From positions 9,152 to 73,151 of the forward strand of contig NZ_JAQUHV010000012.1 of assembly GCF_028681615.1 (NCBI RefSeq): DNA of 64,000 nt, in the 5' to 3' direction. Source of the DNA: Sulfuricurvum sp. (GTDB lineage: Bacteria > Campylobacterota > Campylobacteria > Campylobacterales > Sulfurimonadaceae). Numbering within the stretch: the first letter of the stretch is position 1; each line of letters begins with the position of its first letter. A model generated the notes under the pieces. That model was not told where the DNA came from, did not search any database, and saw only the letters and a program-made list of their open reading frames with translations. The translations under genes were made by a program, and so were the position numbers. This document shows, piece after piece, positions 30,442 to 54,376 of this stretch.

Positions 30442-30915
30442 TCAGTGATGGTGATGAAACTCCAAGACTTCTTTGATCTCTTCCGGAGTCGCTTCATGAA
30501 TATCCAGAACCGTCCCCTCAAAAATGAGATCCATTCCTGCTAGCGGGTGATTTCCGTCCATAGTGGCATGATCTCCATTGATTTCAGTGACGGTATAAAT
30601 GATGACGTCATCGGAATCTTCTTCGAAATATCCGTCGAGTTCCATCCCGACACTTACCTCTACCGGCAACTCGCTGAGAGCTTCTGTGATCACGAGAGAG
30701 GGATCATATTTTCCGAATGCTTTATCCGATGTAAGGGTGATTTTGAACGTTTCTCCGATGCTTTTGCCTTCCAACGCTTGTTCGACCGTAGGGAAGATGT
30801 GGCCGTAATTACCGTGGAGATAGACAAGAGACTCCTCTTCTTCGTGGAGAAGGTTTCCCTCCGTGTCGTTGATATGGTAATCGATGGTAACGAGACAATT
30901 TTTGGTGATGGTCAT
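30442..30915 (-). CDS. slyD: FKBP-type peptidyl-prolyl isomerase SlyD paralogue with a C-terminal His4 tail
   Basis: 157 aa, collinear with 17779-18246 (for example TIDYHINDTEGNLLHEE, DGNHPLAGMDLIFEG) and ending ...EFHHHH. Lies 8 nt downstream of modC. Confidence 0.8.
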   Translation of the reverse strand: MTITKNCLVTIDYHINDTEGNLLHEEEESLVYLHGNYGHIFPTVEQALEGKSIGETFKITLTSDKAFGKYDPSLVITEALSELPVEVSVGMELDGYFEEDSDDVIIYTVTEINGDHATMDGNHPLAGMDLIFEGTVLDIHEATPEEIKEVLEFHHHH

Positions 30916-30923
30916 AAGGTTCC

Positions 30924-31799
30924 TTAGGGTAGCGGTATGAGGATAGGGTTAAACGCTTTGGTCGAGATTATAGCGTGTCCGCCCACACGTAGTTCTGAAG
31001 CCTCAGTGGAGCTAAGAACGGTACGAACGACGGAGGAGCCTACGAGCAGTGTTACGATCACGGCTGGAGAGTCCTCTTCGATTTTGAGAACCTCGCCGAT
31101 GAGCTGCAGTTTTCCGCTGAGGGCTTGCGGACTAAAGAACTCCATTGGGGGGCAGATCGATTTGATCCGTCCCGATTCGACGGAAGCGAGACGGTCGGAG
31201 AGCTTGACGGTTTCGGCGATGTCGTGGCTGACCAGAAGGGTCGTAACACCGAGACGTTGATGGATCAGGGTAAGTTCGTCCTGGAGTTTCTGGCGCATAA
31301 GAGGATCAAGCGCCGAGAGCGGTTCATCGAGGAGGAGAATTTTAGGACGGCGCACTAATGCACGGGCAAGGGCAACCCGCTGTTTCTGTCCGCCCGAGAG
31401 CGTGGAGGGGAGACGATCGGAGAGTGCGGTCAGCTCGACGAGTTCGATCAGCTCATCAATATTGGAACGTTGTTCACTGTTGTCCGCGGCAAACAGGAGA
31501 TTCTCACGTACGCTCATCGTAGGGAATAGGGCATAGTCTTGGAATACAAATCCGATGCTCCGTTTCTGGGGAGGGAGATTGATTTTTTTCGTACTGTCGA
31601 ACCACACTTCTCCGTCTACTTCGATCACTCCGCTATCGGGTTTTTCGAGACCTGCAATCATCCGCATCAACGTCGTTTTTCCCGCACCTGAGGGACCGAA
31701 GAGGGTTATAAATTCCCCATCCTCGATTTTTAGCTCAAAATGGGCTTGAAGTATCCCCTCTGCGGTGTCGAGCCGCTTTGTAATATTAAGAAATATCAT
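30924..31799 (-). CDS. modC: molybdate ABC transporter ATP-binding protein
   Basis: 291 aa with GPSGAGKTT, LSGGQKQRVALARAL, LLLDEPLSALD and a short TOBE-like C-terminus. Overlaps modB by 4 nt. Confidence 0.85.
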   Translation of the reverse strand: MIFLNITKRLDTAEGILQAHFELKIEDGEFITLFGPSGAGKTTLMRMIAGLEKPDSGVIEVDGEVWFDSTKKINLPPQKRSIGFVFQDYALFPTMSVRENLLFAADNSEQRSNIDELIELVELTALSDRLPSTLSGGQKQRVALARALVRRPKILLLDEPLSALDPLMRQKLQDELTLIHQRLGVTTLLVSHDIAETVKLSDRLASVESGRIKSICPPMEFFSPQALSGKLQLIGEVLKIEEDSPAVIVTLLVGSSVVRTVLSSTEASELRVGGHAIISTKAFNPILIPLP

Positions 31800-32470
31800 C
31801 GAATACCGCCCAACGATTTTTTATTGAGGGTGTAGACGAGAAGCAGTATCGCAAAGGTAACCGCAAAAAGGGTGAGGGCGTATTGGTGCGCCAGTGCGTA
31901 GTTGAGCGATTCGACCTCGTCATAGATGGCGATGGAAGCGACGCGGGTTTCACCCGGAATGTTTCCGCCTATCATGAGGATCACCCCGAACTCTCCGACC
32001 GTGTGGGCAAATGCGAGGACGATTCCGGAGATAAGACCGTGACGGATTGAGGGGAGGATGACACGCACCATCGTCTGGAGTTTTGATTTACCGAGGGTAT
32101 AGGCGGCTTCAAAAATCGAAGGCGGTACTTGGGAAAGGGCCGATTGGATCGGATGTACCATAAACGGTAAACTAAAGAGGACAGAGCCGACGACGAGCCC
32201 GTCAAAACTGAATGCAAGGCGGATGCCGTGTTCGGTCAAAAATTTTCCGATAAATGATGAGGGGGTAAAGGCGAGGAGGAGATAAAACCCTAAAACGGAC
32301 GGAGGCAGGACAAGCGGCATGGAAACGATTGTCTCTACGATACTTTTAAACCGCATGCGGCTAAAGACCAAGAACGATGCAAGGGGAATCGCAATCACAA
32401 GCAGTATCAGTGTCGTAACGGAGGCGAGTTTAAAGGTCAGCACCATCGTGCTGATGAATTCAGATTCCAT
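31796..32470 (-). CDS. modB: molybdate ABC transporter permease
   Basis: 224 aa, about 5 TM segments, with the EAA loop FEAAYTLGKSKLQTMVRVILP. Confidence 0.85.
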   Translation of the reverse strand: MESEFISTMVLTFKLASVTTLILLVIAIPLASFLVFSRMRFKSIVETIVSMPLVLPPSVLGFYLLLAFTPSSFIGKFLTEHGIRLAFSFDGLVVGSVLFSLPFMVHPIQSALSQVPPSIFEAAYTLGKSKLQTMVRVILPSIRHGLISGIVLAFAHTVGEFGVILMIGGNIPGETRVASIAIYDEVESLNYALAHQYALTLFAVTFAILLLVYTLNKKSLGGIR

Positions 32471-32861
32471 GGGTCTCTCTCAATAAGGATATTTCGCTCG
32501 GTTGAACCATCCAGCACACCTCGTCGCCTTCACGTATAGAGAGGGTGTTGAACGTCACTGTCGGCACGAGTGCCATGATCGTCGTCTCATGATAGGTGAG
32601 AGTGACTTGTGAGAGGATGATTCCGCGCTCTATGGTCTGAACCGACGCACGCTGCATGTTTGCGGTGGCGGCAGAGAGTGTGTCGGAAAGGATAACCTCG
32701 GTCTCTTTAAATGCCAGAGTCACAGGGGTATTGAGCAAATTTTTTTCATTTGACGCTTCGGCGAGGAGAAGATAAAACGTATCTTCCCCGACGGCAACCC
32801 CTAAACAGGAGAGGTGTTCGGATGAGGTGACGGAGGTAATGGAGGCTTTTAAAATATTCAT
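32460..32861 (-). CDS. TOBE-domain protein
   Basis: 133 aa with two TOBE-like half repeats. Overlaps both modD and modB. Confidence 0.55.
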   Translation of the reverse strand: MNILKASITSVTSSEHLSCLGVAVGEDTFYLLLAEASNEKNLLNTPVTLAFKETEVILSDTLSAATANMQRASVQTIERGIILSQVTLTYHETTIMALVPTVTFNTLSIREGDEVCWMVQPSEISLLRETHGI

Positions 32862-33706
32862 AGCGGCTCAATTTTCACTTTGATATCGGCAGGCTGCGCG
32901 TTGTAGGGCGATGAGGTGACGATCATATCGACTCCCGTACTTGCATATTCGGCGATATTTTTAGTACTGATCCCTCCGGTCGCGATCAGGGTGATGTGAG
33001 GATAGTCGGCGCGCAATATACGGACGGCATCGGAGAGTTTGGTGAGAGGGAATTTCTCCAGTTGTAGAATATCGGCTCCCATACTGGCAAATTTCAACGC
33101 CTGAGCGATGTCTTCGGCTTCCATGACGATCTTTTTCTCGGGGTTCGATTTTTTGGTTTTATTGAGCGCTTCTGCGAATGCTTCATCTGCCGGAAAAAAG
33201 ACGCGGTGGTAGTCGAAGATGAGGATGCTTTCTGAGAGTCCCAAACGGTGAGCGACACCGCCACCCGATTCGACGGCTTTGATCGCAATCTTTTTTGTAA
33301 ACGGGGTCGTTTTGCGGGTAGTGGCGACGACGATATCGGGGTTGATCGAACGGGCTAAGAGGACCGCTTCGCGGGTATAGGTGGCGATACCGCTGGCGTA
33401 GTCGATCAGGTTTTGGACAGACTTCCAGATGCGGTGGATGTTTCCCGCTTCGCCGTGGGCTTCGAGAAAGACGCTTTTAGGGGGGATAAGGGTTCCGGAT
33501 TTCACAAATCCGTCGATCTCCAAACCATACAATCCGCACAGGCGTACGGCCTCTTCCATGCAGGAGACGACGAGAGGGCGTTCACGGGTGGCAAAGGTGA
33601 TGCGGGCACGCTGCTCACCGATCCCGAGCGATGCGGTTGTCAGATCGCCGTAGGGGACGTCTTCGCTCAAAAATGCTTCAAGTTCATGGTCATTGAGGAT
33701 AATCAT
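32858..33706 (-). CDS. modD: ModD protein (family resembling nicotinate-nucleotide pyrophosphorylase)
   Basis: Start at MIILNDHELEAFLSEDVPYGDLTT, which forms an ATGA overlap with the upstream methyltransferase stop. QPRTase-like fold motifs. Confidence 0.75.
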   Translation of the reverse strand: MIILNDHELEAFLSEDVPYGDLTTASLGIGEQRARITFATRERPLVVSCMEEAVRLCGLYGLEIDGFVKSGTLIPPKSVFLEAHGEAGNIHRIWKSVQNLIDYASGIATYTREAVLLARSINPDIVVATTRKTTPFTKKIAIKAVESGGGVAHRLGLSESILIFDYHRVFFPADEAFAEALNKTKKSNPEKKIVMEAEDIAQALKFASMGADILQLEKFPLTKLSDAVRILRADYPHITLIATGGISTKNIAEYASTGVDMIVTSSPYNAQPADIKVKIEPL

Positions 33707-34497
33707 ACCGATGTCTCCCATCCGATAAATGCCCAGTTGACGGCACGTGGAGGACGCTTTTGTCCAACGATCACCTCACGGTAATATTCGCGTGCTTTGA
33801 GTTTTTGCTCTTCGCTCAGCTCGTGTACGCTCCAGATCAACGATTCGACGAATTCATCTTCGGTGTTGCTTCGGACACTGCCTCTGCCTGTTTCGATGTA
33901 ATCGACGCGGGGGAGATAGCCTTGTGAATAGAGGAGGATAGGGATGTACCAATAGTCGGGTTTGGTTTTGACCTTTTTGCCGATGTAATCGAGGATGCTC
34001 ATGTCGACGAAACTCCCTCCTACTTTGTAGGTGAGATAGCACCGTTTACGCGCATGCGCAGACATTTTGGAGAGGGCGGCATCGACGTCGGAGACCTCCA
34101 TGGATCGGGAAGCGACAACGATATCGATCTGCGGCAACCGGCTCCAGTCATCTTCCCATCCGATATGATATGTTTTAATATTAGTGACCCCTTCGCGCGC
34201 GGCGTAGGCTTTCAGCTCTTCGAGCATTTGTGCGGAGAAGTCGATAGCAATGACCTCTTTGACCCGTTTTGCCAGCGGGATGGCCAATGTTCCCGGCCCG
34301 CATCCAATATCGAGAACGACCTCGTCACCGCTAATGTTCATGCGGGAAATAAAGTCGTCGACATACGGGCTGTTGATGACGGATGCCGCCATATCGGCAG
34401 ATTTTTCGTCCCAGTCACTGCTGGTTTTGCCTTTGAAATCGGTAGTGGCTTTGTGCTCTTTGTACATTGCCGCAAAATCGATCGGTTCTAAAAACAT
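33703..34497 (-). CDS. class I SAM-dependent methyltransferase
   Basis: 264 aa with motif I VLDIGCGPGTL. First gene of the modD-TOBE-modBC-slyD string. Confidence 0.7.
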   Translation of the reverse strand: MFLEPIDFAAMYKEHKATTDFKGKTSSDWDEKSADMAASVINSPYVDDFISRMNISGDEVVLDIGCGPGTLAIPLAKRVKEVIAIDFSAQMLEELKAYAAREGVTNIKTYHIGWEDDWSRLPQIDIVVASRSMEVSDVDAALSKMSAHARKRCYLTYKVGGSFVDMSILDYIGKKVKTKPDYWYIPILLYSQGYLPRVDYIETGRGSVRSNTEDEFVESLIWSVHELSEEQKLKAREYYREVIVGQKRPPRAVNWAFIGWETSV

Positions 34498-34521
34498 TGG
34501 GTGTCCTTTATAAACTGGATT

Positions 34522-34545
34522 AATTGTATCCTATTTGATCTAACG
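34522..34545. promoter_or_regulatory. candidate ModE-type operator (box 3)
   Basis: On the gene-sense (minus) strand it reads CGTTAGATC-AAATAG-GATACAATT, 24 nt upstream of ATG 34497. Confidence 0.4.
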
Positions 34546-34570
34546 AATAGTTTTTTTCTAAGTATTTTAT

Positions 34571-35347
34571 TCACTGGGAACTAGCCCCTTTTTTATAGAG
34601 TTTGAATGCAGAGAGGGTCAAAATTACTGCTAGCAAGAGTTGCAACATAGAACTGGGAATGCTTCCCAACATACTTTTACCGACCCATGCCCCGATAATC
34701 GATCCTGCAGCCATCCATGCAATAAAACGGAGATTGGGTTTGACGATTCGGAACGGTTCTTTTTTCCGGTAGCGGTATAAACCGATCATGATTGTAGGGA
34801 GGCTGATCATCAGACTGAGTGTTCCTGCGATTTTAATATCCACACCGTACAATAGGGCAATGGTTGGGATAATCAGTTCACCTCCCGCAACCCCTAGCAT
34901 ACTGCTAAAAAGTCCGATGATGATCCCTGCACTAAATCCCAAAAACGTCAATGCGCTTTGACCCAGTTCCAAGGGATTGAAATGGACTCTGGATTCGATG
35001 ATCATAACAATCGCCAATCCTCCAAGCAATACGGCGACAATCTTGTCTAGGCGTTTTTCGTCGATGCGTGATGCGATTCCTACTCCCATTGATGCTCCGA
35101 TAAGAGAACCTGACAACAAGGTAGCGACGATCGGTAAAAAAGAGGATACGGCACTCCATGATTCCCATCTGAAACTAAGCGATGATGCGACGGTAATCCA
35201 AGAAATGATCAGATTGATGATTATCGCGTGAACGGTAGAAAATTGGAAGATGAACGTGAGCAGCGGAAGACGAAATTCTGCTCCGCCAAGCCCTATCAAT
35301 CCCCCTAAGATACCGATGAGGGCACCGTACAAAAACGGTTTAAACAT
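34571..35347 (-). CDS. TauE/SafE (DUF81) family anion permease
   Basis: About 258 aa from MFKPFLYG, multi-TM, with a Gly-rich GGLIGLGGAEFRLPLL motif typical of the family. Confidence 0.75.
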   Translation of the reverse strand: MFKPFLYGALIGILGGLIGLGGAEFRLPLLTFIFQFSTVHAIIINLIISWITVASSLSFRWESWSAVSSFLPIVATLLSGSLIGASMGVGIASRIDEKRLDKIVAVLLGGLAIVMIIESRVHFNPLELGQSALTFLGFSAGIIIGLFSSMLGVAGGELIIPTIALLYGVDIKIAGTLSLMISLPTIMIGLYRYRKKEPFRIVKPNLRFIAWMAAGSIIGAWVGKSMLGSIPSSMLQLLLAVILTLSAFKLYKKGASSQ

Positions 35348-35825
35348 GATCATCCTTCTGAATTCTAATCTGATTTTCACTGATCAGTGCAAAGATTTTT
35401 AACGGATCATTTTTGTTGTCGTTCGCAATCTTTTCTAACGTATGTTCGAGATTGTATATCACAATCCCTTTTCGATCTAAAAATTCGCCTGCACTGTCGA
35501 TACAAATGTTTAATCCCTCGCACAGTTCTCGAAGCGACCTTTGTTTAAACGTTTTGAGATGTGCATGATTGGTGCACGGCTGTTTTGCACCGCCCGTTGT
35601 GACGATCGAGAAGAACTCTTTGAGGAGTTTTTTTAATTTTTCCCGTCTCAAATAAATATGGACCGGAAGAATCGTCATGACGAGTACCCCGGCAATCACA
35701 TGGTATCTCATGATGTTTTGGTTGTAGGCTCTATCGAACGTGATGAAAGCAGTTGAACTCAAGGTCAGCATCAGTATGAGCATCACAAGGATGACAACAA
35801 CTTTGAGAAAGGTTTCAGTTTGCAT
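35340..35825 (-). CDS. membrane protein (2 TM plus a cytoplasmic Cys-containing domain), paralogue of 26628-27140
   Basis: 161 aa with the shared motifs HIYLRREKLKKL, LRELCEGL and EKIANDNKNDPLKIF. Confidence 0.5.
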   Translation of the reverse strand: MQTETFLKVVVILVMLILMLTLSSTAFITFDRAYNQNIMRYHVIAGVLVMTILPVHIYLRREKLKKLLKEFFSIVTTGGAKQPCTNHAHLKTFKQRSLRELCEGLNICIDSAGEFLDRKGIVIYNLEHTLEKIANDNKNDPLKIFALISENQIRIQKDDHV

Positions 35826-36027
35826 AAGTCCCCTTTTTCATACAGATAAAGCTTTCTCGTGTCCATCGACGGTAAAGACAGTTATAGCAAGAATTGTGTG
35901 CCGTAGTGGTGATCAATTCGTCCTCGTCTTTATCAAGTTTAAACGCTTCACATGCCGCTTCAATCGCTTTTTCGTAAGAATCTTTGCCGTATCGAAAGAT
36001 AACATTTCCATTTTCTAGTATAAACAT
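35815..36027 (-). CDS. small Cys-containing protein (CxxC...C), function unknown
   Basis: 70 aa containing HNSCYNCLYRRWTRESFIC. Overlaps the downstream gene by 11 nt and lies 9 nt after the upstream one. Confidence 0.4.
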   Translation of the reverse strand: MFILENGNVIFRYGKDSYEKAIEAACEAFKLDKDEDELITTTAHNSCYNCLYRRWTRESFICMKKGTYAN

Positions 36028-36036
36028 GGTTTTACC

Positions 36037-36771
36037 TCAGTAATTTTTGAGTTTTTCTTTGCCGAGTGGGCGATAATTATCGCCGTCCGGTTCGACCAGT
36101 AAAACACATTTATGATTGAGATAGACGATTTTGAGCTCCTCTTCTGTGAGGATAAGGGCATTCTCAGAAATCAATGCTCCGTTACTCAGTTGAATCTCGT
36201 CGATAAGATCATTATTTAGAAGCGTTTGAACCTCGATCGTTTGGGTATCGAGGCGAAATTTGCCTTTAATACGTCCATCACTACCGTATGCACGCAGGGC
36301 GATTCCCGCTACTGCACCTATGACCCCTTGTCCGGTGTTTTTGAGTTCGCGTAAAAAGAGGTTATGCTTTTCTGCAATAGCATAGGCACTCTCTTTACTC
36401 AGCACTTTAACTTTGGCATCAAAACCATAGGCGATTAATGCTTCCATATCACCGATCTCGTCTTCAAATGCAATACATACCCCCGGATCGGAGGTCGGAG
36501 CGCTGATATTTTCAACATGTTCGAGAATAAATCGTGTGACCTCTTCTCGCTCTTTTTTACTCAGATAGGTTGTAAAACACATCGAACTGTTGTGCGATGT
36601 GTAGGGAATGTCCTCATGAAGATAGAGCTGGTGACGTGTGATGGGCGCCGCCAAAACGGAGTAATGTTTCATGATATGTTCCCGAATCGCTTCGCAAATC
36701 TCTCCTGTCGAGGTATGGTAACCGATCTCATCCGTATCGTCGATACTGATATAAGTCTTTTTTCGTATCAT
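36037..36771 (-). CDS. stand-alone protein resembling the N-terminal kinase domain of archaeal TiaS (DUF1743-like)
   Basis: 244 aa. ISIDDTDEIGYHTSTGE, DIPYTSHNSSMCF, DPGVCIAFEDE and GQGVIGAVAGIALRA parallel the GIDDTDS..GMCTTY, IPYKTRGNGAVSF, NPGAVF and GRGLIGALAAVGA blocks I recall from A. fulgidus TiaS. No OB-fold or zinc-ribbon part is present. Confidence 0.45.
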   Translation of the reverse strand: MIRKKTYISIDDTDEIGYHTSTGEICEAIREHIMKHYSVLAAPITRHQLYLHEDIPYTSHNSSMCFTTYLSKKEREEVTRFILEHVENISAPTSDPGVCIAFEDEIGDMEALIAYGFDAKVKVLSKESAYAIAEKHNLFLRELKNTGQGVIGAVAGIALRAYGSDGRIKGKFRLDTQTIEVQTLLNNDLIDEIQLSNGALISENALILTEEELKIVYLNHKCVLLVEPDGDNYRPLGKEKLKNY

Positions 36772-36774
36772 CGA

Positions 36775-38751: not shown

Positions 38752-38766
38752 TGCATTTCCTTTAGA

Positions 38767-39774: not shown

Positions 39775-39784
39775 GGCTCTCTCC

Positions 39785-43570: not shown

Positions 43571-43594
43571 TTTTATATCATAATTGATATAATG
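43571..43594. promoter_or_regulatory. candidate ModE-type operator (box 4)
   Basis: On the gene-sense strand it reads CATTATATC-AATTAT-GATATAAAA, 32 nt upstream of ATG 43538. Confidence 0.4.
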
Positions 43595-43618
43595 TTATAT
43601 AAATTTTTTTCCTCCCTT

Positions 43619-46397: not shown

Positions 46398-46402
46398 AGC
46401 CC

Positions 46403-48643
46403 TTAAAACTTCAGATTGATACTGCCATAAAGTCCGAACGGTGCACCCGTATTATAGGTACTTGCCGTTCCGGTCGCTGCCAAGAAGTTATCGGCGGCAT
46501 TGATCGTAGCGATGTATTTTTCGTTCGTCAGGTTGGTAGCCGTCAGACGGAAAAGGGCGTTATGTGAACCCATAAACTGTGCCATACGATAGGCGACATC
46601 GAAATCGATCAGGGTAAAGGCGTCTATTTTTTGGGTATTGGCGACATCTCCCCATCGGCTGGAGGTATATCGGGCGCTTGGGGTGAGCGTCCAGTCGCCT
46701 AGGTGATATGAAAGTGCCGCTTTTGCCATGTATTTCGGAGCGTCAGGGAGCTGTTTACCGTCGGTTTCAACGGTAGAAGAAGCGCCACTTTGGAAGTTTT
46801 GGGTGAATTGATAGCGGTTGTACGAGAGACCGAGCAAGAGTTCCAAATTTTCGCTGATCGGTCCGTATGCCGAGAATTCCGCTCCGTATCCGAGGGCATC
46901 TCCAACATTGGCAGGATAATTGACGCCGTAGGCAGGATCATAGATATTAGCCTGTTTGTTTTTGACGAACGAAACATAAAGACTTGGATTGAGAGTGAGC
47001 CCTCCAAGCGTTGTTTTGACTCCGAGATCAATATTATCGGAGAGTTCCAAATCGAGTTTATCCCACAGCTGTTGCAAGGTGACGTTTTGAGCTACAAAAC
47101 TCGAACGACTGGAAATATAGGTCGGGAATAGATTGACGTCGAATCCGTAGGTACGGGAATAATCGAGATATGCCATGGTCGATGGTGAAATCGTATATCC
47201 GAGGTAGAGCGACGGAATGAACGTATTAAAGGTTTTAGCCTCTACGCTTGCCCACGGATCAATGGCAGTCGATGCGATCGCAGCGTCATAGTCAGGATTG
47301 GCAGCGGATGTTTGATTTCCGTTGGTATGGCTTTTAAGCGAGCCGAGTTTGAATGTTTGGTACTGTGCTCCTGCCACATAGGTGAAACGATCAATCGTAC
47401 CGCTGATTTGGGCAAACGGTGCTTGGAGTGTATGGTAGTCGTTATTGGCGAGAACCGCATAGCCATCAAAGACCAAAGCACCGTTGACCACTTTGTATTT
47501 GATCTGGTCGCTCGGAGGCCCCGGAGGGAGCTGTTTGTGGTACCAATACCCGATTTTGGTTTTTAAAGCTTCGGAAAACTCATGGTCGTACGCAGCGGTT
47601 GCACCGTAGAGATCATGCTCCATACGCCAGTTCATGACACGCTGTTTTGCCGCAGCGGTATCGAATTTAGAAAACCAGTAATCTCCCTCATCTTTTTTAT
47701 AATACGGTTTGACCGTGATCGTATCACTCGTGGTTGGCTTGTATTCGAATTCTCCCAACAGAGCCGTTGTCAGGAAACTTTGTTTGTTCCAGTCGTAATA
47801 GTTGACATCATTGGAGGCGGTCGGCTGAGTCGTGGCAAAATCTTTGTTGAAATTTGCCCCTAAATTATTGGCTTCATTAAACGAGAGATTATAGTAGTTG
47901 TGGTGATCATCCGAGTTACGGATAGCCGTGACTTTGGCTTTGAACGTATTAGTAGGGGTGTAGGTAAGGCCCAAAGTACCGTTGAGACGTTTGAGATCCC
48001 CTTCACCTTTGGTTTTGTCATTGGAGAGATGAGAGAATGAGCCGAATACCGCTATATCGCCGACTTTGCCCGAATCGAATCGTACAAAAGTACGCTGAAA
48101 GTTATCCGAACCGAATGATTGAGAGACTTCCGCTCCGGCTTTTGATTTAGCCGTAAGGAGATTCAAATCGACTTTTCCGATGAGACTCGAGAAACCGAGG
48201 TTCTTATCGGCCGGTAGATACCCTTTGAGCAAATCGATCGAACTGACGTTTTCCATATCCACGAGCTGTTTTCCGCCTCCGGGATTACTGGAGATCGGCA
48301 TTCCGTCGATCATATAGACACCGCCGGGGCCGCTTTGGCTTTTTCCTCGTATACGGATCGGATCATGATACGAGGGTTCGTTGGAACCGGCCTGATCGAC
48401 GGGGGTAAAGTTGACCGATGGGGAATAAGCGATCACGCTGTAGGGATTCATATTCGCCTGAGTCGAGAGGGTTGCGATACTTTTGCCCGTGAAGGTTTGA
48501 TTCGCACTGCTTTGATTGGTATCAGCGATCATACTGTCACCATCGTCAACCGAGTCGGTTACAACGATCCGTTCGATCCCCAGAGGATCGGCGGCAAGAA
48601 TCGCACATGCGGCAAGGGAGAGGAAAATAGGGGAAAGTTTCAT
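46403..48643 (-). CDS. TonB-dependent outer-membrane receptor 3
   Basis: 746 aa with a signal peptide, a plug domain (IRIRGKSQSGPGGVYMIDGMP) and a barrel ending ...SINLKF. Confidence 0.8.
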   Translation of the reverse strand: MKLSPIFLSLAACAILAADPLGIERIVVTDSVDDGDSMIADTNQSSANQTFTGKSIATLSTQANMNPYSVIAYSPSVNFTPVDQAGSNEPSYHDPIRIRGKSQSGPGGVYMIDGMPISSNPGGGKQLVDMENVSSIDLLKGYLPADKNLGFSSLIGKVDLNLLTAKSKAGAEVSQSFGSDNFQRTFVRFDSGKVGDIAVFGSFSHLSNDKTKGEGDLKRLNGTLGLTYTPTNTFKAKVTAIRNSDDHHNYYNLSFNEANNLGANFNKDFATTQPTASNDVNYYDWNKQSFLTTALLGEFEYKPTTSDTITVKPYYKKDEGDYWFSKFDTAAAKQRVMNWRMEHDLYGATAAYDHEFSEALKTKIGYWYHKQLPPGPPSDQIKYKVVNGALVFDGYAVLANNDYHTLQAPFAQISGTIDRFTYVAGAQYQTFKLGSLKSHTNGNQTSAANPDYDAAIASTAIDPWASVEAKTFNTFIPSLYLGYTISPSTMAYLDYSRTYGFDVNLFPTYISSRSSFVAQNVTLQQLWDKLDLELSDNIDLGVKTTLGGLTLNPSLYVSFVKNKQANIYDPAYGVNYPANVGDALGYGAEFSAYGPISENLELLLGLSYNRYQFTQNFQSGASSTVETDGKQLPDAPKYMAKAALSYHLGDWTLTPSARYTSSRWGDVANTQKIDAFTLIDFDVAYRMAQFMGSHNALFRLTATNLTNEKYIATINAADNFLAATGTASTYNTGAPFGLYGSINLKF

Positions 48644-49662
48644 TGGTTGGCTCCTAATAGATTTTTAACTTGTTCATCACTCAGTTTTACATGTAAGAAA
48701 AGTTCATAGAACTCTTTGGTGCGGACACTCAGGTCGGGTTTAAACTCTTTCGGATGGAATAAATGGGCCAGCCATTGGATTCCGATCACCCGCATAAACG
48801 ATGGCGGACGGTCGATCCAGTTAAACGGCTGGATCGGTACGAGATAGATACGGCCGGATTTGAGTGCTTTTAGATTTTTCCAAAGGGGATCGTCGATCAG
48901 ATCATTATAGACAGCCCGGTTTTGGACGATAATGACATCCGGATTGTAGGTCATGAGTTTTTCAAAATTGATTTTTTCCAGACCGAGTAGACCGCTTTGT
49001 TGGCATTTATGGACGTTCTCACCTCCGGCAAAATTGAGCGCTTCGACATGAAACGACGTATCGCATTCGGTAGAGAGGCCATCGGTCCCTTCCGCGTAGT
49101 AGTAGCGTGTCGGTTTGACTTTGGAGACACTGGTGTGGACTTCATCGATTATTTTTTGAGAGTAATTGGCCAAAATATTTGCCTGTTTACTCTCACCGAT
49201 TGCCGCTCCGGCCAGACGAAATGCACGTGGCATGTCGTTCACTTCACGAAACGGGATCATAAAAGTCGGGAGATGGGTTTTTTCGATTTCACGTTGTACG
49301 GTTTGGACCATCATGTCGTCTTGCCACAGTAATACCAGCTGGGGTTTATAGGCCATCAACGTTTCAAGATTGATACTCTGACCCCCTCCGTGAAACGATC
49401 CGATCACCGGTAGTGAAAGAAATTTTGGGTTGAGAAAGCTTTCATTCGCTCCGTTATTGCCATTTTTTGCCGAAAAGTTCAATCCGATCATCTTATTCGG
49501 ATTGAGTGCATAGATGAGATAGTTCATTGGCGGAGATGAACCGAAAACCCGATCGGTTTGATCCGGGAGTATGACGGGATGTCCATCCATATCTGTTACT
49601 GTTTTCGCATGTGCAGCGAGAACAATCACCGATAAGAGGAGGAGTTTTGAGAGCGTATTCAT
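48640..49662 (-). CDS. periplasmic binding protein, class III, copy 3
   Basis: 340 aa with a signal peptide, YYYAEGTDGLSTECDTSFH and FNWIDRPPSFMRVIGIQWL. Confidence 0.8.
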   Translation of the reverse strand: MNTLSKLLLLSVIVLAAHAKTVTDMDGHPVILPDQTDRVFGSSPPMNYLIYALNPNKMIGLNFSAKNGNNGANESFLNPKFLSLPVIGSFHGGGQSINLETLMAYKPQLVLLWQDDMMVQTVQREIEKTHLPTFMIPFREVNDMPRAFRLAGAAIGESKQANILANYSQKIIDEVHTSVSKVKPTRYYYAEGTDGLSTECDTSFHVEALNFAGGENVHKCQQSGLLGLEKINFEKLMTYNPDVIIVQNRAVYNDLIDDPLWKNLKALKSGRIYLVPIQPFNWIDRPPSFMRVIGIQWLAHLFHPKEFKPDLSVRTKEFYELFLHVKLSDEQVKNLLGANQ

Positions 49663-49671
49663 GGGATTCCT

Positions 49672-50454
49672 TTAGGATTTGTGTAAATTAAATGCGATAG
49701 GGATACTCAGTTCAAAGGTCTTTCCCAATGCGGGGTAATCACCGCTGAGGCTGAAAATCGTTTGAATCGCTTTATTGTCCAGAAGTGTACTGCCGCTGGT
49801 CGTGATCACTTTTGCGGCTTCAACAATTCCGTTAGGTTTAAGTACAAACGATACCACCACAATCCCCTCGATACGAAGTTTACGAGCGATTGCGGGGTAG
49901 GTGATTGCATGTTCGATCATAGCCCGTATATTTCCCAACGCCGCTCCGCCGATTTCGTTGCTGGAAACTAGGTTTCTTGGTAATTCGTTTTCAGAGTCGG
50001 AGGAAACACTCTTATGAGGAGAATCAATGAGTGATGATGGCGGAGCCGAAATGACGGGAACAGGTGGAGCTAGAGGCGCGGACGCCTCAGAGGACACCGA
50101 AGGAGTTAATGACGGCATCCTCTCAGGGGTCGTTTTTGCAATGGTGTGCACTTCATTCGGTACACTCGGTGTGGTTTTCGCTTTGGGAACGGTAATGGAT
50201 TTCGGTGTCTGCTTTTGGACGATAGAGTGTTCGAGCATATTTCGATCCCCCGTAGTGGAGGCAAACTCCGAAAGGGAGATGATAACTCTCTCTTCTTGGG
50301 GTTCCATCAGGACCGGGTGGGTTGACATAAAATAGACGATTCCCGCCAACACGGCACTGTGAACCCCAAATGATGCGCCGAAAGATTTGAATTTTAATAA
50401 GAAATTCTTATATTGTATCTTTTCTGATATAACGATTGAGCTTAAAAAATACAT
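49672..50454 (-). CDS. tonB: TonB-family energy transducer
   Basis: Start taken at MYFLSS. One TM segment, a Pro/Ser-rich linker and a TonB C-terminal domain (YPAIARKLRIEGIVVVSFVLKPNG). Confidence 0.7.
   Translation of the reverse strand: MYFLSSIVISEKIQYKNFLLKFKSFGASFGVHSAVLAGIVYFMSTHPVLMEPQEERVIISLSEFASTTGDRNMLEHSIVQKQTPKSITVPKAKTTPSVPNEVHTIAKTTPERMPSLTPSVSSEASAPLAPPVPVISAPPSSLIDSPHKSVSSDSENELPRNLVSSNEIGGAALGNIRAMIEHAITYPAIARKLRIEGIVVVSFVLKPNGIVEAAKVITTSGSTLLDNKAIQTIFSLSGDYPALGKTFELSIPIAFNLHKS
50411..50434. promoter_or_regulatory. ModE-type box lying inside the first about 15 codons of tonB (box 5)
   Basis: On the gene-sense strand it reads CGTTATATC-AGAAAA-GATACAATA. It lies 22 nt downstream of the stop of globin-like gene B. 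Confidence 0.3.
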
Positions 50455-50455
50455 T

Positions 50456-51034
50456 TTAATTTTCCTCAATTTTATTTTTATTCCATATCGATGCATACGG
50501 ATAACGTTCGATCGGTGCGACTGTTGTTCGTCGGTTGATCATCCGGATTGATAGCGGCTCGATCCAGTTCCAGAACTCTTCGATACGCTCTTTGGGCATC
50601 CCGAGGTCATTGATCGTTTTTTTATACATCATCAGCCAGATTTCACGACCTTTTTCATCGATCGTGATATGAAAATGGCGCATCCGAAGAGCAGGGTGGC
50701 CGTGTACCGGAGTGTACGCTTTTTCACCGCCGAGTGCTTCGACGAAAAAATCAGCCGTTTTTTCCGTTGCAAAGGCAAACGCCGCATCGTCTGCAGGAAA
50801 CAAATTCCCGATGGTACTTTTTCTCAATAATCCATGATGGTAACGGACCATTCTGCGAATGTTGTCTTCTCCCCATTGTTGGTAGAGGAGAATCGAGGGA
50901 AAAGGGACTTCGGGATAAACAAAGTCGATTTTGGCTTCAGCGGTATTGGGTGTCATACTCGCTGGTTCAAACGGTTTGGTCCCGCAGGAACTAAACATCG
51001 ATACCGGTTTTCCATCAGACATTAAGAGATTCAT
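50456..51034 (-). CDS. globin-like protein resembling group II truncated hemoglobin (paralogue B; proximal His retained)
   Basis: 192 aa. GHPALRMRHFHITIDEKGREIWL matches the trHbO GHPRLRMRHAPFRI..RDAWL core. An N-terminal extension of about 45 aa is present. Confidence 0.65.
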   Translation of the reverse strand: MNLLMSDGKPVSMFSSCGTKPFEPASMTPNTAEAKIDFVYPEVPFPSILLYQQWGEDNIRRMVRYHHGLLRKSTIGNLFPADDAAFAFATEKTADFFVEALGGEKAYTPVHGHPALRMRHFHITIDEKGREIWLMMYKKTINDLGMPKERIEEFWNWIEPLSIRMINRRTTVAPIERYPYASIWNKNKIEEN

Positions 51035-51230
51035 TGCATTTCCTTTTATAAAAGATCAACTTCTGCCTCGACAGAGGCAAGCTTTAGTGCCATAGCGGCA
51101 AGCGCAGCGAAAGGGATTTTATTCCTTTCGCGTTCAAATCAAATAGAACATCAGGGGAGACGACAGGTTTTATTGAATAACCGCAGACAAACCTTCCTGT
51201 CGTCTCTGCTCATGCCCCGGAGGGCATAGA
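51035..51230 (-). promoter_or_regulatory. GC-rich intergenic region with several hairpins (candidate terminator plus structured 5' leader)
   Basis: Four hairpins: 51212-51227 (ATGCCC/GGGCAT), 51157-51206 (11-bp stem GAGACGACAGG/CCTGTCGTCTC, 28-nt loop), 51107-51131 (GCGAAAGG/CCTTTCGC) and 51064-51079 (TGCCTC/GAGGCA). Confidence 0.35.
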
Positions 51231-52601
51231 TTAAAAACGGTAGTTCGCTTCCAAACGCATTTCGCGGTTAGAAGTTTCAGCCGTTGCCAATGTTGATTTT
51301 TCATTGTTTTGATCCATCAGACGGGCTTTGAGTTCCGTCCCTTTCCAACTGCCGGATAGTTTGTAAATTACGTCCAAATTCCATTGACGGGTATCGCCGT
51401 TTCCGTAGGCTCTATCTGTCATGCTTTGGTAGGGTTTTTTACTCGGGTCGCGGTTATAATACGCGTAGCTGAGCATCGTACTGACACCCGGTACGATCGC
51501 ATCACAGTCGTAATCAAATTCTGCTTTATACGAGGTAGTATTGGCATTCCAGTCGGTTTGCGTCATACTGCGGGTATAACCCTGTGTCGGGAATCCGCGC
51601 CATGGAGCGATCATATCTCCGCCGCCGTCCGTATGCGATGTCGCAAGCAGGAATTTAGCCGCACGATAGTTAGCGGTTGCACGCAATGCATAGAGATAGG
51701 TGTCCACACTGTTGTCGCTGTCGTAATTGTTTGCTTTCGGCAGGATAATATTTCCGGCACCTTGATCGTATTGTTTCATGTACAACCCGCCGAATCCGAG
51801 GATGACATCCCCCGCTTCAAGAGCATAATTCGCTTCAAGACGGAGATGATCGATCAAATCAGGCCAATGCATAACCCACCCTTGGAGTTCGAGATTGTCA
51901 ATCGATTTATTGGTTACACCGACGACACTGACATTGGGCGCGTCTCCGTGTCTAACCGTAGCGGTACCGTATCCGGTATCATAATAGTTACTGATTTTTG
52001 TCGGTGTATCGAGTGTTTCGGCCATATTTCCGAAATAGTCCATACCGCGCTCTTTGATCTTTTCGATGTAGTCCAGTTGAATAGTCGTGTTGAGAACATC
52101 ATTGGAAACGAAATCGACCCCTTCATATGCGATCGGGATCATTTTAGTATCGTTGGGTGACATCCATGGGTTCGTTACGAGCATACGGCCCGCTCTGATT
52201 TTGCTTTTGGCGATATCGTATTGCAGATACGCTTGCGCTAAAACAGCATATCCGTCTCCATAGTTGTACGCCGATCCCGGACCACGTGCAAAGAGATCTT
52301 TTGAAGTATTGGCATATTTTCCATCCTCTGCTTCGGTCCATCCGCCCGGATTTTGAGTAGTATACAGACCGGTTCCGAAACTAAATCCGTACAACGGTGC
52401 CGTTTTGTAGATCAAACTCCCCCCTACAGCAAAGCCGGTTGCGCTGTATTTGCTATCATCATCCCAATCGGTTACAAAATATTGGGCTCTGAGACGACCG
52501 TCCAGTTTCCCTTCTTTAAACGCCGAAGCCAAATCATCTGCCGCTTGGGCAAAGAGACAGGTTCCCAGAACAAGTGCGGTTGCAATACTTAATTTTGTCA
52601 T
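51231..52601 (-). CDS. outer-membrane porin (resembles the OprD family)
   Basis: 456 aa with a signal peptide (CLFAQA), alternating beta-strand pattern and a C-terminal ...EANYRF. Confidence 0.6.
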   Translation of the reverse strand: MTKLSIATALVLGTCLFAQAADDLASAFKEGKLDGRLRAQYFVTDWDDDSKYSATGFAVGGSLIYKTAPLYGFSFGTGLYTTQNPGGWTEAEDGKYANTSKDLFARGPGSAYNYGDGYAVLAQAYLQYDIAKSKIRAGRMLVTNPWMSPNDTKMIPIAYEGVDFVSNDVLNTTIQLDYIEKIKERGMDYFGNMAETLDTPTKISNYYDTGYGTATVRHGDAPNVSVVGVTNKSIDNLELQGWVMHWPDLIDHLRLEANYALEAGDVILGFGGLYMKQYDQGAGNIILPKANNYDSDNSVDTYLYALRATANYRAAKFLLATSHTDGGGDMIAPWRGFPTQGYTRSMTQTDWNANTTSYKAEFDYDCDAIVPGVSTMLSYAYYNRDPSKKPYQSMTDRAYGNGDTRQWNLDVIYKLSGSWKGTELKARLMDQNNEKSTLATAETSNREMRLEANYRF

Positions 52602-52609
52602 TTTTTTAT

Positions 52610-52633
52610 CCTTATTTATTTTTTGATATAACG
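52610..52633. promoter_or_regulatory. candidate ModE-type operator (box 6)
   Basis: On the gene-sense strand it reads CGTTATATC-AAAAAA-TAAATAAGG and ends 8 nt before the porin ATG. Confidence 0.35.
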
Positions 52634-52684
52634 TGTATCAAGCAACGTAAATTGCTGATGCTCGCCTCATTCGAGGCTGAACGA

Positions 52685-53440
52685 TTATTTTTTTGGCAAG
52701 CCGTAGCCGCTCGCTTTTAAAATTTCTAACGCTTTTGCAGAGGACATAAATCGGAGGAATTTTTTGGCAGCGATCTGATTTTCAGGTGAGCCGTTTTTGA
52801 GTCCTACCATCGCCTGATCGATCGTGTTGTACGATTTAGGATCGATTTCAATCCATTGACCGACATTTTTCATTTCAGGTGAGAGGACGATAGATTTAGC
52901 GATAAATCCTAGGTCAACCGCTTTTGTTGATACATAGTTTCCAACTTGAGAAATGGATTCGGCCGTGATGATCTTCGGTGCGATAGCCCCGTCGACTTTG
53001 TAATAGTGCATCGTATTCATTGCTTCGATACCGTACGGGGCAGTTTTAGGATTTGCAACCGCAATTTTCGAAACTTTTGGGTCAGTAACAGCGGCTACCC
53101 CTTTAGAGAGATCAACACCCGTATTGCTCCATAGGACGAGTGACCCGTAAGCATAGACTTGAGACGGTGTTGTCGTATAGCCGCCAAGTGCCAGTTTTGC
53201 AGGATATTCGACATCCGCAGAGAGAAATACATCATACGGTGCACCGCTCATGATTTGTTGAGTCAATTTACCAGAAGAGCCGGTGATGATTTTTACACCG
53301 ATTCCGCTCTCTTCAGTAAATGCTTTTGCAATGTCGTTTGCAGCGTATTTCATGTTGGCGGCAGTAGCAACGGTGATCGTTTGTGCAGCGAGTGCGGAGG
53401 CAAACGCGAGGGATGCCAATACAATTTTAATCAGTTTCAT
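52685..53440 (-). CDS. modA: molybdate ABC transporter substrate-binding protein
   Basis: 251 aa with a signal peptide and ITVATAANMKYA...TGSSGKLTQQIMSGAPYDVFLSAD, typical of ModA. Confidence 0.85.
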   Translation of the reverse strand: MKLIKIVLASLAFASALAAQTITVATAANMKYAANDIAKAFTEESGIGVKIITGSSGKLTQQIMSGAPYDVFLSADVEYPAKLALGGYTTTPSQVYAYGSLVLWSNTGVDLSKGVAAVTDPKVSKIAVANPKTAPYGIEAMNTMHYYKVDGAIAPKIITAESISQVGNYVSTKAVDLGFIAKSIVLSPEMKNVGQWIEIDPKSYNTIDQAMVGLKNGSPENQIAAKKFLRFMSSAKALEILKASGYGLPKK

Positions 53441-53448
53441 GGAAACTC

Positions 53449-53472
53449 CTTAGTATCTGTTTTGATATAACG
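53449..53472. promoter_or_regulatory. candidate ModE-type operator (box 7), proximal to modA
   Basis: On the gene-sense strand it reads CGTTATATC-AAAACA-GATACTAAG and ends 8 nt before the modA ATG. The right arm overlaps the AAGGAG SD. Confidence 0.5.
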
Positions 53473-53525
53473 AAAATTACAAATTTACTTGTGCAAAAAC
53501 GGTTCGCAAAAAAACGTGACATTTT

Positions 53526-53549
53526 CGTTGTGTTTTGTAAGATATAACG
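53526..53549. promoter_or_regulatory. candidate ModE-type operator (box 8), distal to modA
   Basis: On the gene-sense strand it reads CGTTATATC-TTACAA-AACACAACG, 85 nt upstream of the modA ATG. Confidence 0.4.
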
Positions 53550-53599
53550 GCATTATAAAATAAAAGGCTTAAACTAGTCCGATTTTTGTTAATAAAGTG

Positions 53600-54376
53600 T
53601 TAGAGCCCGATAATAATGTGAAGAGGAGAGATAATAGCGTAAGCAGTCATTCCGACTTTGAGATTTTGGAGAGAGTCCTGTTTATCCAAGGCGATGAGGA
53701 GGGTGCCTCCGCTGAGACGCAATCCGATCTCGATATTGTCTCCCGAAGTTTCGAGGGTTTCGATCGTACCGGAGAGGATATTATCATCGGTGTCGGAAGA
53801 GGGCTCTGTAGAGACGATACTAATATCACTCGATTTAATAATCGCGTAGGTGTCGCATCCGACGCTCAGCCCCATATTAAGTACCGATTTTGCGGTGATG
53901 GTTGAGCGCATGACGTCCGAACCGCTGAGGGCGAGGGTGAGGGTGGAATGCAGGCCGTTCGTATGGATCTCTTTGAGAACACTCGGGAGCTGATTGCGTG
54001 CGCTGGTGGTGAGGAACGTACGGCTGAGGATTCGTGCCAGACGTTCGGGATCGTTGCCCGCTTCCGAAAATCGGTCGATAAACTGTCGGTGAAGCTCGTT
54101 AAATCGGTGGAATGTTGCGATAAGTTCACGGGCATAGGGGGTGAGTTTCGTCCCACCGCCCCCTTTGCCTCCGGTAGTCCGTTCGATGAGGGGCTGATCG
54201 GCGAGGGCATTCATGCCGTTGATACGTTCCCACGCCGCCTTGTAGCTCATTTTCATCTCTTTGGCGGCGGCGTGGATCGATCCGATCTTATCGATACGCT
54301 CCAGCAGCTCTATCCGCCCGCTCCCTAAAAAACTTTGCCCATCTTTGGTGAGCCAAAAACGTCCGTCGATCTTCAT
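53600..54376 (-). CDS. modE: molybdate-responsive transcriptional regulator ModE (full length: HTH plus di-TOBE/Mop domain)
   Basis: 258 aa. SIHAAAKEMKMSYKAAWERINGMN, TTGGKGGGGTKLT and TSARNQ align with E. coli ModE (SISQGAKDAGISYKSAWDAINEMN, ATGGKGGGGAVLT, TSARNQ). Confidence 0.85.
   Translation of the reverse strand: MKIDGRFWLTKDGQSFLGSGRIELLERIDKIGSIHAAAKEMKMSYKAAWERINGMNALADQPLIERTTGGKGGGGTKLTPYARELIATFHRFNELHRQFIDRFSEAGNDPERLARILSRTFLTTSARNQLPSVLKEIHTNGLHSTLTLALSGSDVMRSTITAKSVLNMGLSVGCDTYAIIKSSDISIVSTEPSSDTDDNILSGTIETLETSGDNIEIGLRLSGGTLLIALDKQDSLQNLKVGMTAYAIISPLHIIIGL

Follow-up and report, generated by a model that had tools for sequence, protein, structure and literature searches.

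A candidate molybdenum/tungsten acquisition locus in Sulfuricurvum, with predicted ModE operators and a TonB-dependent uptake system set between modA and modBC

Little is understood of how molybdenum (Mo) and tungsten (W) pass the outer membrane of bacteria, or of how they are acquired where free oxyanions are in short supply, as in sulfidic or metal-poor habitats, and the physiological role of the well-studied importer MolBC-A of Haemophilus influenzae is puzzling given its low affinity for molybdate. Both questions are raised by a gene cluster of Sulfuricurvum sp. (contig NZ_JAQUHV010000012.1), which was analysed in a stretch of DNA of 64,000 nucleotides (hereafter the window, to which all positions refer). 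Genes for a TonB protein, three TonB-dependent receptors (TBDRs), three periplasmic binding proteins (PBPs), a FecCD-family permease, an ABC ATPase and enzymes are located there between modA with a porin gene on one side and modD-TOBE-modB-modC on the other, and the question is what these uptake genes carry. We consider it probable that the locus is a ModE-controlled Mo/W acquisition system which combines a classical route with a TonB-dependent route. An earlier reading of the sequence alone (the original prediction) had proposed a Mo/W-responsive acquisition system here, and in addition to the linkage with mod genes that proposal is now supported by four independent lines of evidence: predicted ModE operators, homology to MolB, MolC and MolA, a riboswitch-linked core in other phyla, and the placement of the core beside tup, wtp and moeA genes.

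The layout given in the original prediction was largely borne out. All 25 open reading frames (ORFs) from modE to a slyD-like gene (30442 to 54376) are carried on the minus strand, neighbouring genes overlap or are separated by at most 15 nt at 19 of the 24 junctions (the remaining five gaps measure 73, 80, 196, 83 and 159 nt), and modA is indeed separated from modBC by the uptake cluster. Family labels were assigned from Pfam and NCBIfam profile scores relative to the model cutoffs, and essentially every earlier gene label was confirmed. The co-directional run, which had been presented as a property of the cluster, is not special to it; minus-strand genes continue well beyond both cluster ends (from ~27.8 kb to ~62.9 kb), so that co-orientation by itself carries little weight.

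The window was scanned for ModE operators with two patterns. The E. coli-derived pattern CGTTATAT-N8-ATATAACG (8-N8-8 layout, up to 4 mismatches allowed) was found at 11 sites compared to 3.8 expected, with a maximum of 8 in 200 shuffles, and 9 of the 11 sites fall within 25.8-53.6 kb, at gene starts. The pattern TTATATC-N6-GATATAA (up to 3 mismatches) was found at 16 sites compared to 3.7 expected, a number reached in 0 of 100 shuffles. The upstream region of E. coli K-12 modA was read directly, and its operator is CGTTATAT-TGTCGCCT-ACATAACG; the same half-site and 8-N8-8 layout recur in a perfect site of the window at 25852-25875 (CGTTATAT-CATTTAAG-ATATAACG), while the intergenic sequences of the cluster have CGTTATATC in common. 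Judged by sequence, the boxes are ModE-type operators and not chance occurrences, and we infer that ModE binds them and represses the genes which follow.

Within the cluster, two predicted operators are found upstream of modA (53449-53472 and 53526-53549, at the same position in the relatives L086 and L087), one upstream of the porin gene (52610-52633, detected in both pattern scans), one upstream of the gene for TBDR2 (43571-43594, with all 14 core positions perfect and its position kept in L003, L005, L006, L007 and L086) and one upstream of the genes for methyltransferase A (MTase-A), modD, TOBE, modB and modC (34522-34545, at the same position in L005 and L006). The claim that ModE-type boxes mark the breaks between sub-operons was therefore correct for four of the five large gaps; no box was detected by the pattern scans in the fifth, the 196-nt gap before a globin-like gene. 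A further predicted box is found in the first codons of tonB, inside its 5' end (50411-50434), with a like arrangement in L087 and L090. The strongest predicted operators lie outside the cluster. The perfect site already mentioned (25852-25875; CGTTATATCATTTAAGATATAACG) is between a response-regulator/histidine-kinase pair (23921-25766, minus strand) and the gene for globin-like protein A (25881-26411, plus strand), and two others (27165-27188 and 27270-27293) precede a di-TOBE molbindin gene (27310-27783, plus strand), where they also lie over the start of a 197-amino-acid membrane ORF (26628-27221, minus strand). These genes and their boxes recur in the Sulfuricurvum metagenome-assembled genome (MAG) L001/L006.

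The nearest relatives of the cluster were found in Sulfuricurvum and Campylobacterales MAGs. Neighbourhoods of the TBDR3 gene were compared in six relatives (L086 to L091), and boxes sit at operon starts in all six, including two (L090 and L091) which have no mod genes nearby. L086, which is 94% identical, mirrors the layout of the window. L087 has SPOR-pabB-aroE-modE and then modA-porin-TonB-PBP-TBDR3-FecCD-ATPase-ExbB-ExbD-globin-TBDR-PBP, with a box upstream of exbB. An unsplit order, modA-porin-TOBE-modB-modC-TauE-globin-TonB-PBP-TBDR3-FecCD-ATPase-TBDR and further on MTase-modD, is seen in L088 (Sulfurovaceae), and a minimal locus, modE followed by PBP-TBDR3-FecCD-ATPase-modD, in L089, where the box CGTTATATCTTAACAAACATAACG lies between modE and the PBP gene. 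In L090 the box CGTTATGT-TTAAAAAG-ACATAACG is directly upstream of tonB. Both the Sulfuricurvum MAG L001/L006 and L005 have MTase-A-modD-TOBE-modB-modC after the cluster, with boxes before the TBDR2 and MTase-A genes, while Sulfurimonas marina (L003) has no mod genes downstream of its cluster, yet retains the box before TBDR2. Conservation of the boxes spans Sulfuricurvum, Sulfurimonas and Sulfurovaceae relatives, including loci without a nearby mod gene (L090, L091 and L003).

Mop genes or modD also adjoin the TBDR1-TiaS-like gene pair in other Campylobacterota (L010, L011, L017, L021 and L025): a Mop gene comes immediately before the pair in L010, L011 and L025, and the order in L021 is modABC-PBP-FecCD-ATPase, then the TiaS-like gene, then Mop-modD. 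Co-occurrence with mod genes holds for L086, L087, L088 and L089 and fails for L090 and L091. A general lack of mod flanks in relatives, which the original prediction would have taken as a refutation, was thus not found; the flanks are frequent, though not universal, and as judged from the boxes the regulatory link persists where the flanks are missing. The bracketing of the cluster by a split mod system, a prominent part of the original prediction, is present in the window but is specific to the Sulfuricurvum-like lineage (the mod genes are unsplit in L088 and absent near the cluster in L090 and L091), and it is not a defining feature.

The transport proteins were compared with all PDB sequences (coordinates of cluster genes here and below refer to the minus strand). 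The top match of the permease (45375-46397) was MolB (HI1471, 2NQ2_A) of H. influenzae at 8.6e-59, followed by FhuB (7.9e-47), with HmuU and BtuC weaker, and the top match of the ATPase (44593-45384) was MolC (HI1470, 2NQ2_C) at 7.4e-41; the importer is thus MolBC-like, as had been suggested. PBP1 (40399-41472), PBP2 (43619-44596) and PBP3 (48640-49662) are class III binding proteins of the Peripla_BP_2 family, and all three matched 4PAG and 4OVK, which are structural-genomics entries without an assigned function, and then MolA (3PSA/3PSH); PBP3, for example, matched 4PAG at 5.8e-83 and 3PSA at 6e-14. For each of the three, MolA outranked every siderophore, heme or B12 binding protein. MolBC-A belongs to the type II importers, and its binding protein has both molybdate and tungstate as ligands (PMC4031551, PMC4245157); molB of H. 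influenzae is repressed by molybdate through a regulator that was not identified in that work (PMC4031551). The three receptors, TBDR1 (36775-38751, which travels with the TiaS-like gene), TBDR2 (41475-43538) and TBDR3 (46403-48643, which travels with the permease and ATPase genes), all have Plug and 22-strand barrel domains (PF07715 and PF00593). The tonB gene (49672-50496; PF03544 at 1.3e-14, TIGR01352) has its likely start at the ATG at 50454, which is preceded by a ribosome-binding site.

The gene next to that of TBDR1 (36037-36771) encodes a protein of 244 amino acids which serves as the marker of a widespread core. About 1000 homologues were found in the protein collection and relatives in 552 species-level genomes; the invariant motifs are IDDTD (N-terminal), TRHQL, YTSHNSSMCF and the glycine-rich stretch GxxxGxxLRxxGxDGRxxG. 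The original label, TiaS-N-like, was upheld by an AlphaFold model (pLDDT 92.5) with Foldseek top matches to TiaS (3AMU/3AMT/5XOB, E 3e-9), by a profile search (TiaS 3U02 at 1.7e-8, with the DDTD motifs aligned) and by Pfam TiaS_TCKD. Full-length TiaS chains have 402-440 residues (3U02 is a shorter construct) compared to the 244 of the TiaS-like protein; the sequence alignments end at about residue 160 of TiaS, and the Foldseek alignments comprise 159-239 columns compared to chains of 355-420 residues. The protein is a TiaS-like TCKD enzyme and not TiaS, because the C-terminal OB-fold and zinc-ribbon domains, which bind tRNA in TiaS, are absent. Its conserved partner, a CxxC protein of 70 amino acids, is encoded by a separate ORF (35815-36027).

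The wider core was mapped by tblastn around 80 TiaS-like loci, 40 of which have the CxxC gene. The recurrent unit is FecCD-ATPase-PBP-TiaS-like (one to three copies)-CxxC mini-protein and was found in Syntrophomonas, Desulfotomaculia, Bacillus, Desulfitobacterium and Deltaproteobacteria, while Campylobacterota and one Pasteurellaceae genome add TBDRs and MTase-A to it. Shewanella (L004 and L037) has a TBDR and an ECF-type transporter (a fused double ATPase, CbiQ/EcfT and a putative S component of 180 amino acids) instead of the FecCD importer, followed by the TiaS-like and small-protein genes. A locus of Glaesserella (Pasteurellaceae, L042) was considered as a mol locus but is not claimed as one, because the PBP encoded beside its modD and TiaS-like genes is only a distant relative of MolA (3PSA at 5e-21, partial).

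Outside the Campylobacterota, Rfam finds Moco-motif riboswitches (RF01055; Moco, molybdenum cofactor) in TiaS-like loci. With a profile built from the RF01055 matches, 35 elements were detected, distributed over 23 of the 80 loci; 22 of these loci have an element on the same strand as the TiaS-like gene and upstream of it, and all 13 profile-found elements in seven re-checked loci pass the Rfam gathering score. The riboswitch-linked core or TiaS-like gene belongs to Firmicutes and to one Desulfurellales MAG (L019), where the riboswitch is directly before a TBDR gene followed by the TiaS-like gene. The riboswitch directly precedes the TiaS-like gene in L035, L046 and L052, and elsewhere it precedes operons in which an SLH/Big_5 surface protein and a Big_5 protein are encoded ahead of FecCD-ATPase-PBP-TiaS-like-CxxC. 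The Rfam alignment was inspected for one element, which has no P3 stem, and all others match its short core length of 80-89 nt; the P3-less form has been correlated with tungsten-cofactor metabolism (Regulski et al. 2008, PMC2408646). A direct link to oxyanion transport was seen in Poseidonibacter (Arcobacteraceae, L018), where moeA-wtpA-tupA-tupB-tupC comes directly before FecCD-ATPase-PBP-TiaS-like-CxxC, and TupB/TupC-like matches were found by tblastn upstream of the core in three other Arcobacteraceae loci.

Several riboswitch-linked loci have further genes of their own. In Syntrophomonas- and Desulfotomaculum-type loci (L028, L033, L035 and L059) the operon opens with the gene for an S-layer-homology/Big_5 protein of 900-1400 amino acids and that for a 280-amino-acid Big_5 (weakly CopC-like) protein, and the surface protein looks like a Gram-positive counterpart of a TBDR. 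In Desulfoscipio and Pelotomaculum (L041, L062 and L065) the riboswitch is followed by a gene for an HdrD-like CCG/4Fe-4S protein of ~680 amino acids, an ORF of 83 amino acids and the TiaS-like gene; since the HdrD-like gene precedes it, the TiaS-like step may be redox-coupled. L028 has a second P3-less riboswitch after its TiaS-like/CxxC genes, before genes for a molybdopterin oxidoreductase, XdhC, a TrmO-like protein and a DUF364 'heavy-metal chelation' protein (12681-17572 of that locus), and a third precedes the gene of another class III PBP.

Taken as a ModE-controlled Mo/W acquisition system, the locus would work as follows. Under Mo/W sufficiency, oxyanion-loaded ModE on CGTTATAT-N8-ATATAACG operators would repress at least five transcription units, and under Mo/W limitation both routes would be expressed. 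The classical route would consist of the OprD-like porin, ModA and ModBC. In the TonB-dependent route, three TBDRs with a dedicated TonB would serve the outer membrane, three MolA-related class III PBPs would feed one MolB/MolC-type (type II, BtuCD-like) importer, and the cytoplasm would hold the TiaS-like, presumably ATP-using enzyme with its CxxC partner, ModD, two S-adenosylmethionine (SAM) methyltransferases and a luciferase-like (LLM) flavoenzyme. The receptors may capture, in times of scarcity, Mo/W species whose scarcity, size or tight complexation keeps them from entering through the porin, and in sulfidic habitats the cargo could be thio-, poly- or ligand-bound Mo/W. The roles of the individual enzymes are guesses; as a group they may release or convert the cargo for cofactor synthesis.

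A number of observations weigh against such a system. The PBPs resemble MolA only remotely (E 5e-18, 8.8e-12 and 6e-14), with matches that are partial for two of the three and partly confined to the C-lobe. The first sub-operon (globin-tonB-PBP3-TBDR3-FecCD-ATPase-PBP2) is boxless upstream, its sole box being that inside the 5' end of tonB, and no recognisable ModE box was found upstream of the receptor gene in the Shewanella TBDR-ECF-TiaS-like loci. Mod genes are not adjacent to the cluster in L003 (on the downstream side), L008, L090 and L091, and a detectable Mo/W marker is present within 10 kb in only 38 of the 80 TiaS-like loci. The link between the P3-less riboswitch and tungsten is a published correlation and not a biochemical result (PMC2408646), and the low affinity reported for MolBC-A (PMC4031551) is a poor fit to energised scavenging if the cargo is free molybdate. 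Finally, exbB and exbD were not found in the window; they are presumably encoded elsewhere in the genome, because both lie inside the cluster of the relative L087.

The low affinity of MolBC-A bears on the cargo as well. Dedicated surface receptors in addition imply that what is taken up is scarce or complexed, and for these two reasons the cargo is most likely something other than free oxyanion at ordinary concentrations. It is possible, and we put it forward tentatively, that the core represents a phylum-spanning pathway, not previously recognised, for scavenging complexed or non-oxyanion W or Mo (metallophore-bound, thiolated or polymeric). Its core would then be a surface receptor (TBDR or SLH/Big_5), a MolA-like PBP, a MolBC-type importer, the TiaS-like enzyme and the CxxC mini-protein; the TiaS-like enzyme would carry out a new reaction, dependent on ATP, by which the metal is released or activated for cofactor synthesis, and free molybdate would not be the true physiological cargo of MolBC-type importers.

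A cargo without the metal was also considered, namely that the core imports and reactivates an organic compound of the Moco or tungsten-cofactor pathway (molybdopterin, a dinucleotide cofactor or a breakdown product). We regard this as unlikely. Organic cargo of vitamin size is typical of TBDRs, of class III PBPs with type II importers and of ECF transporters, and it is a TBDR and an ECF transporter that the TiaS-like and small-protein genes come after in Shewanella; however, Moco is very unstable when not bound to protein. TiaS acts on a cytidine nucleotide, and the model of the TiaS-like protein has weak fold tails to the pterin pyrophosphokinase HPPK (E 1e-3 to 1e-2), although this likeness goes no further than a generic ferredoxin-like fold. 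The Moco riboswitch senses the cofactor and not the oxyanion (PMC2408646), whereas control in the Campylobacterota is through ModE, an oxyanion sensor, and the core of Poseidonibacter is joined to the oxyanion transporters tupABC and wtpA. MolA has a low molybdate affinity (PMC4031551), but it does bind molybdate and tungstate, and the contribution of MolBC-A to molybdate uptake is measurable in H. influenzae (PMC4031551, PMC4245157).

The operators tell only that regulation is Mo/W-responsive and not what is carried, and the control of alternative nitrogenases by ModE is a precedent for a backup system under Mo starvation, in which iron, heme, vanadium or another metal chelate would be imported for Mo-independent enzymes. 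Such a role appears quite improbable. The best NCBIfam match of TBDR1 is a heme/hemoglobin receptor subfamily, at a score of 158.5 compared to the cutoff of 316.85, and globin-like proteins are encoded in the cluster, but the best solved homologues are MolB, MolC and MolA and not iron, heme or B12 systems, and the core is joined to tup, wtp and moeA and linked to ModD and molbindins. Among the cluster proteins no siderophore, heme or B12 equivalog model of NCBIfam reaches its cutoff. Heme uptake (suggested by the globin-like genes and the hemin-subfamily match of TBDR1) and corrinoid uptake (suggested by weak CpaM and BtuF matches) were both rejected, because the matches are far below the cutoffs and MolB, MolC and MolA rank higher. 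A classical Fur-box scan of the window gave no site with 4 or fewer mismatches, a weak negative since Fur sites of Campylobacterota may differ. Nor were Fur boxes enriched, with 31 sites in the window at up to 6 mismatches compared to 18.5 expected (shuffle maximum 34), and within the cluster Fur-like sites occur only at 6 mismatches, all of them inside genes. At the Rfam gathering threshold no family matched the whole window, so that no riboswitch of any kind was found there, including RF01055 and the cobalamin riboswitch.

Very little credence can be given to an ordinary iron-siderophore, heme or B12 island inserted by chance between modA and modBC, with boxes that are chance or promoter elements: source databases do label TBDR3 homologues 'iron complex outermembrane receptor protein', the FecCD, Peripla_BP_2 and TonB family matches are generic and the shared orientation of 27.8-62.9 kb lends the cluster little unity, but the boxes are enriched above all shuffles, have their half-site in common with the E. 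coli modA operator and keep their positions across several genera, including loci without mod genes, the core is linked to the riboswitch and to tup/wtp in other phyla, and the Fur, cobalamin-riboswitch and equivalog searches described above were negative.

The preferred reading, a ModE-controlled Mo/W acquisition locus with two routes, can be set beside the systems already known, among them MolBC-A, ModE operators and the Moco/tungsten-cofactor (Tuco) riboswitch. With MolBC-A (HI1470/HI1471/HI1472) the locus shares its importer, MolB and MolC being the best solved homologues of the permease and ATPase and MolA the best characterised match of the PBPs, as well as linkage to modD, which is beside the core in L088, L089 and L042; the mol cluster of H. 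influenzae is HI1469-HI1473 (PMC4031551). It differs in having three PBPs, three TBDRs, its own TonB, the TiaS-like/CxxC pair, methyltransferases and the LLM protein, and in its predicted ModE operators, whereas the regulator in Haemophilus was not identified in the work cited (PMC4031551). MolBC-A has in addition been described as a low-affinity accessory importer without an outer-membrane partner, and the identity of the PBPs to MolA is low.

Full-length ModE, modA, modB, a modC-like gene and the operator half-site and spacing are common to the locus and to the ModE regulon and ModABC of E. coli and other Proteobacteria. The predicted regulon of the window, however, reaches TBDRs, a type II importer, globin-like proteins, a two-component system and a molbindin, and its modA is paired with a porin gene and split from modBC, with a ModC that has no TOBE tail and a separate small TOBE-like ORF. 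Compared to TupABC, WtpABC and the RF01055 regulon, relatives of the core lie beside tupABC, wtpA and moeA and have a P3-less RF01055 element upstream, as in Tup-type operons; Tup and Wtp, however, belong to the type I importers, use class II binding proteins and have no receptor in the outer membrane or at the surface, and the window has no riboswitch. TonB-dependent receptors exist for nickel, zinc, copper and lanthanide, and such non-iron metal systems resemble the locus in that a dedicated TBDR and TonB are coupled to a regulator specific for the metal and to an ABC importer of the inner membrane. Archaeal TiaS, the tRNA-Ile2 agmatidine synthetase, shares the TCKD fold and the N-terminal DDTD motif with the TiaS-like protein, which by contrast is bacterial, has 244 amino acids, is always encoded in transporter operons and has the CxxC mini-protein as a separate partner.

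The original prediction was aware of no described TonB-dependent Mo/W system in Campylobacterota, and literature searches, to which subscription journals were mostly inaccessible, found no TonB-dependent step for Mo or W, no control of a TBDR by ModE or a riboswitch and no TiaS-like/CxxC pair as a part of Mo/W systems. A 2024 review of the substrates of TonB-dependent transporters mentions neither molybdenum nor tungsten. The locus and its relatives point to a way of scavenging Mo or W for which no earlier description was found. Its named receptors, binding proteins and predicted ModE operators supply testable hypotheses both on outer-membrane passage and on the role of MolBC-A, the riboswitch-linked core, present in hundreds of species, is open to knockout, and the uncharacterised TiaS-like enzyme family gains a physiological context. 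If the reading is correct, Mo/W would be added to the cargos of TonB-dependent transport and a new cytoplasmic Mo/W-handling step would be placed in syntrophs, sulfate reducers, Campylobacterota and some pathogens (Campylobacter, Pasteurellaceae).

The remaining genes of the cluster were assigned as follows. modE (53600-54376) encodes a full-length molybdate-responsive regulator with HTH_1 and two Mop/TOBE domains (PRK10676 at 1.3e-44, TIGR00637, TIGR00638). Its start codon overlaps the stop codon of aroE, in a same-strand order of a SPOR-domain gene, a chorismate-binding enzyme gene and aroE; because the synteny SPOR-pabB/trpE-like-aroE-(x)-modE is retained in L087, modE may be co-transcribed with the aromatic-pathway genes. 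modA (52685-53440) encodes a class II molybdate-binding protein (TIGR01256, 165.8 bits compared to a cutoff of 62.5), and the OprD-family porin gene (51231-52601) pairs with it in L086, L087 and L088. At the other end, modD (32858-33721) scored 281.6 bits with TIGR01334 (cutoff 178.85) and adjoins the TBDR3 core in L088 and L089. It is followed by the gene of a 133-amino-acid TOBE/Mop-like protein (32460-32861, a weak match), modB (31796-32470; TIGR02141, 235.9 bits compared to a cutoff of 182.6) and a modC-like ATPase gene (30924-31799; 291 amino acids). The latter covers positions 12-226 of the 353 of the modC profile at a score of 224.7 (cutoff 285.05), without the C-terminal TOBE domain of trans-inhibition. 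In the window the separate TOBE-like ORF is placed between modD and modB, and the TOBE-modB-modC order is also found in L001, L005 and L088. The last gene (30442-30915) encodes a SlyD-like FKBP, and its membership of the system is uncertain.

The SAM methyltransferase A gene (33703-34497) is a gene of the cluster and not a mod gene, because it trails the TiaS-like/CxxC pair in genomes where mod genes are absent there. The luciferase-like flavin oxidoreductase/monooxygenase (38767-39858) was assigned by family match, and the SAM methyltransferase B gene (MTase-B, 39785-40567) probably has its true start near 40402. The two long apparent overlaps, LLM/MTase-B and MTase-B/PBP1, are probably due to over-extended ORF starts, since the Sulfuricurvum orthologues have 336 and 205 amino acids. 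Beyond the CxxC gene are those of a 161-amino-acid membrane protein (35340-35825) and of a TauE/SafE-family anion permease (34571-35380), the latter adjoining mod or cluster genes in L005, L017 and L088.

Globin-like protein B (50456-51034), of the Bac_globin-like type, is a paralogue of globin-like protein A (25881-26411), with which it shares MVRYHH, KTADFFV and FWNWIEPLS..MINRRT; neither has a signal peptide, and each of the two genes is associated with ModE boxes or with the cluster. The globin-like gene is a conserved cluster member in Sulfurimonas and Sulfurovaceae (L003, L088, L090 and L091). The spacer which precedes it (51035-51230, minus strand; 196 nt) is strongly structured, with four to five strong hairpins, one of them an 11-bp perfect stem, and a minimum free energy of -69 kcal/mol (z = -4.5). 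It could be a terminator or REP-like array or a novel leader RNA; it belongs to no Rfam family, and an E-value search of Rfam gave chance-level matches only (AniS, E 0.044). Scans of 34450-54400 for sigma-70 promoters and intrinsic terminators remained at shuffle level.

The segment 34571-36771 together with the TBDR1 gene (36775-38751) resembles a swapped module, and GC content drops to 42% at 36-38 kb. In L086 the receptor gene leads straight to MTase-A, without the TiaS-like, CxxC, membrane protein and TauE genes. TBDR1 of the window is 60-67% identical to TBDR1 of Sulfurimonas and 32% identical to the receptor at the same position in the closest relatives (L001, L005 and L006).

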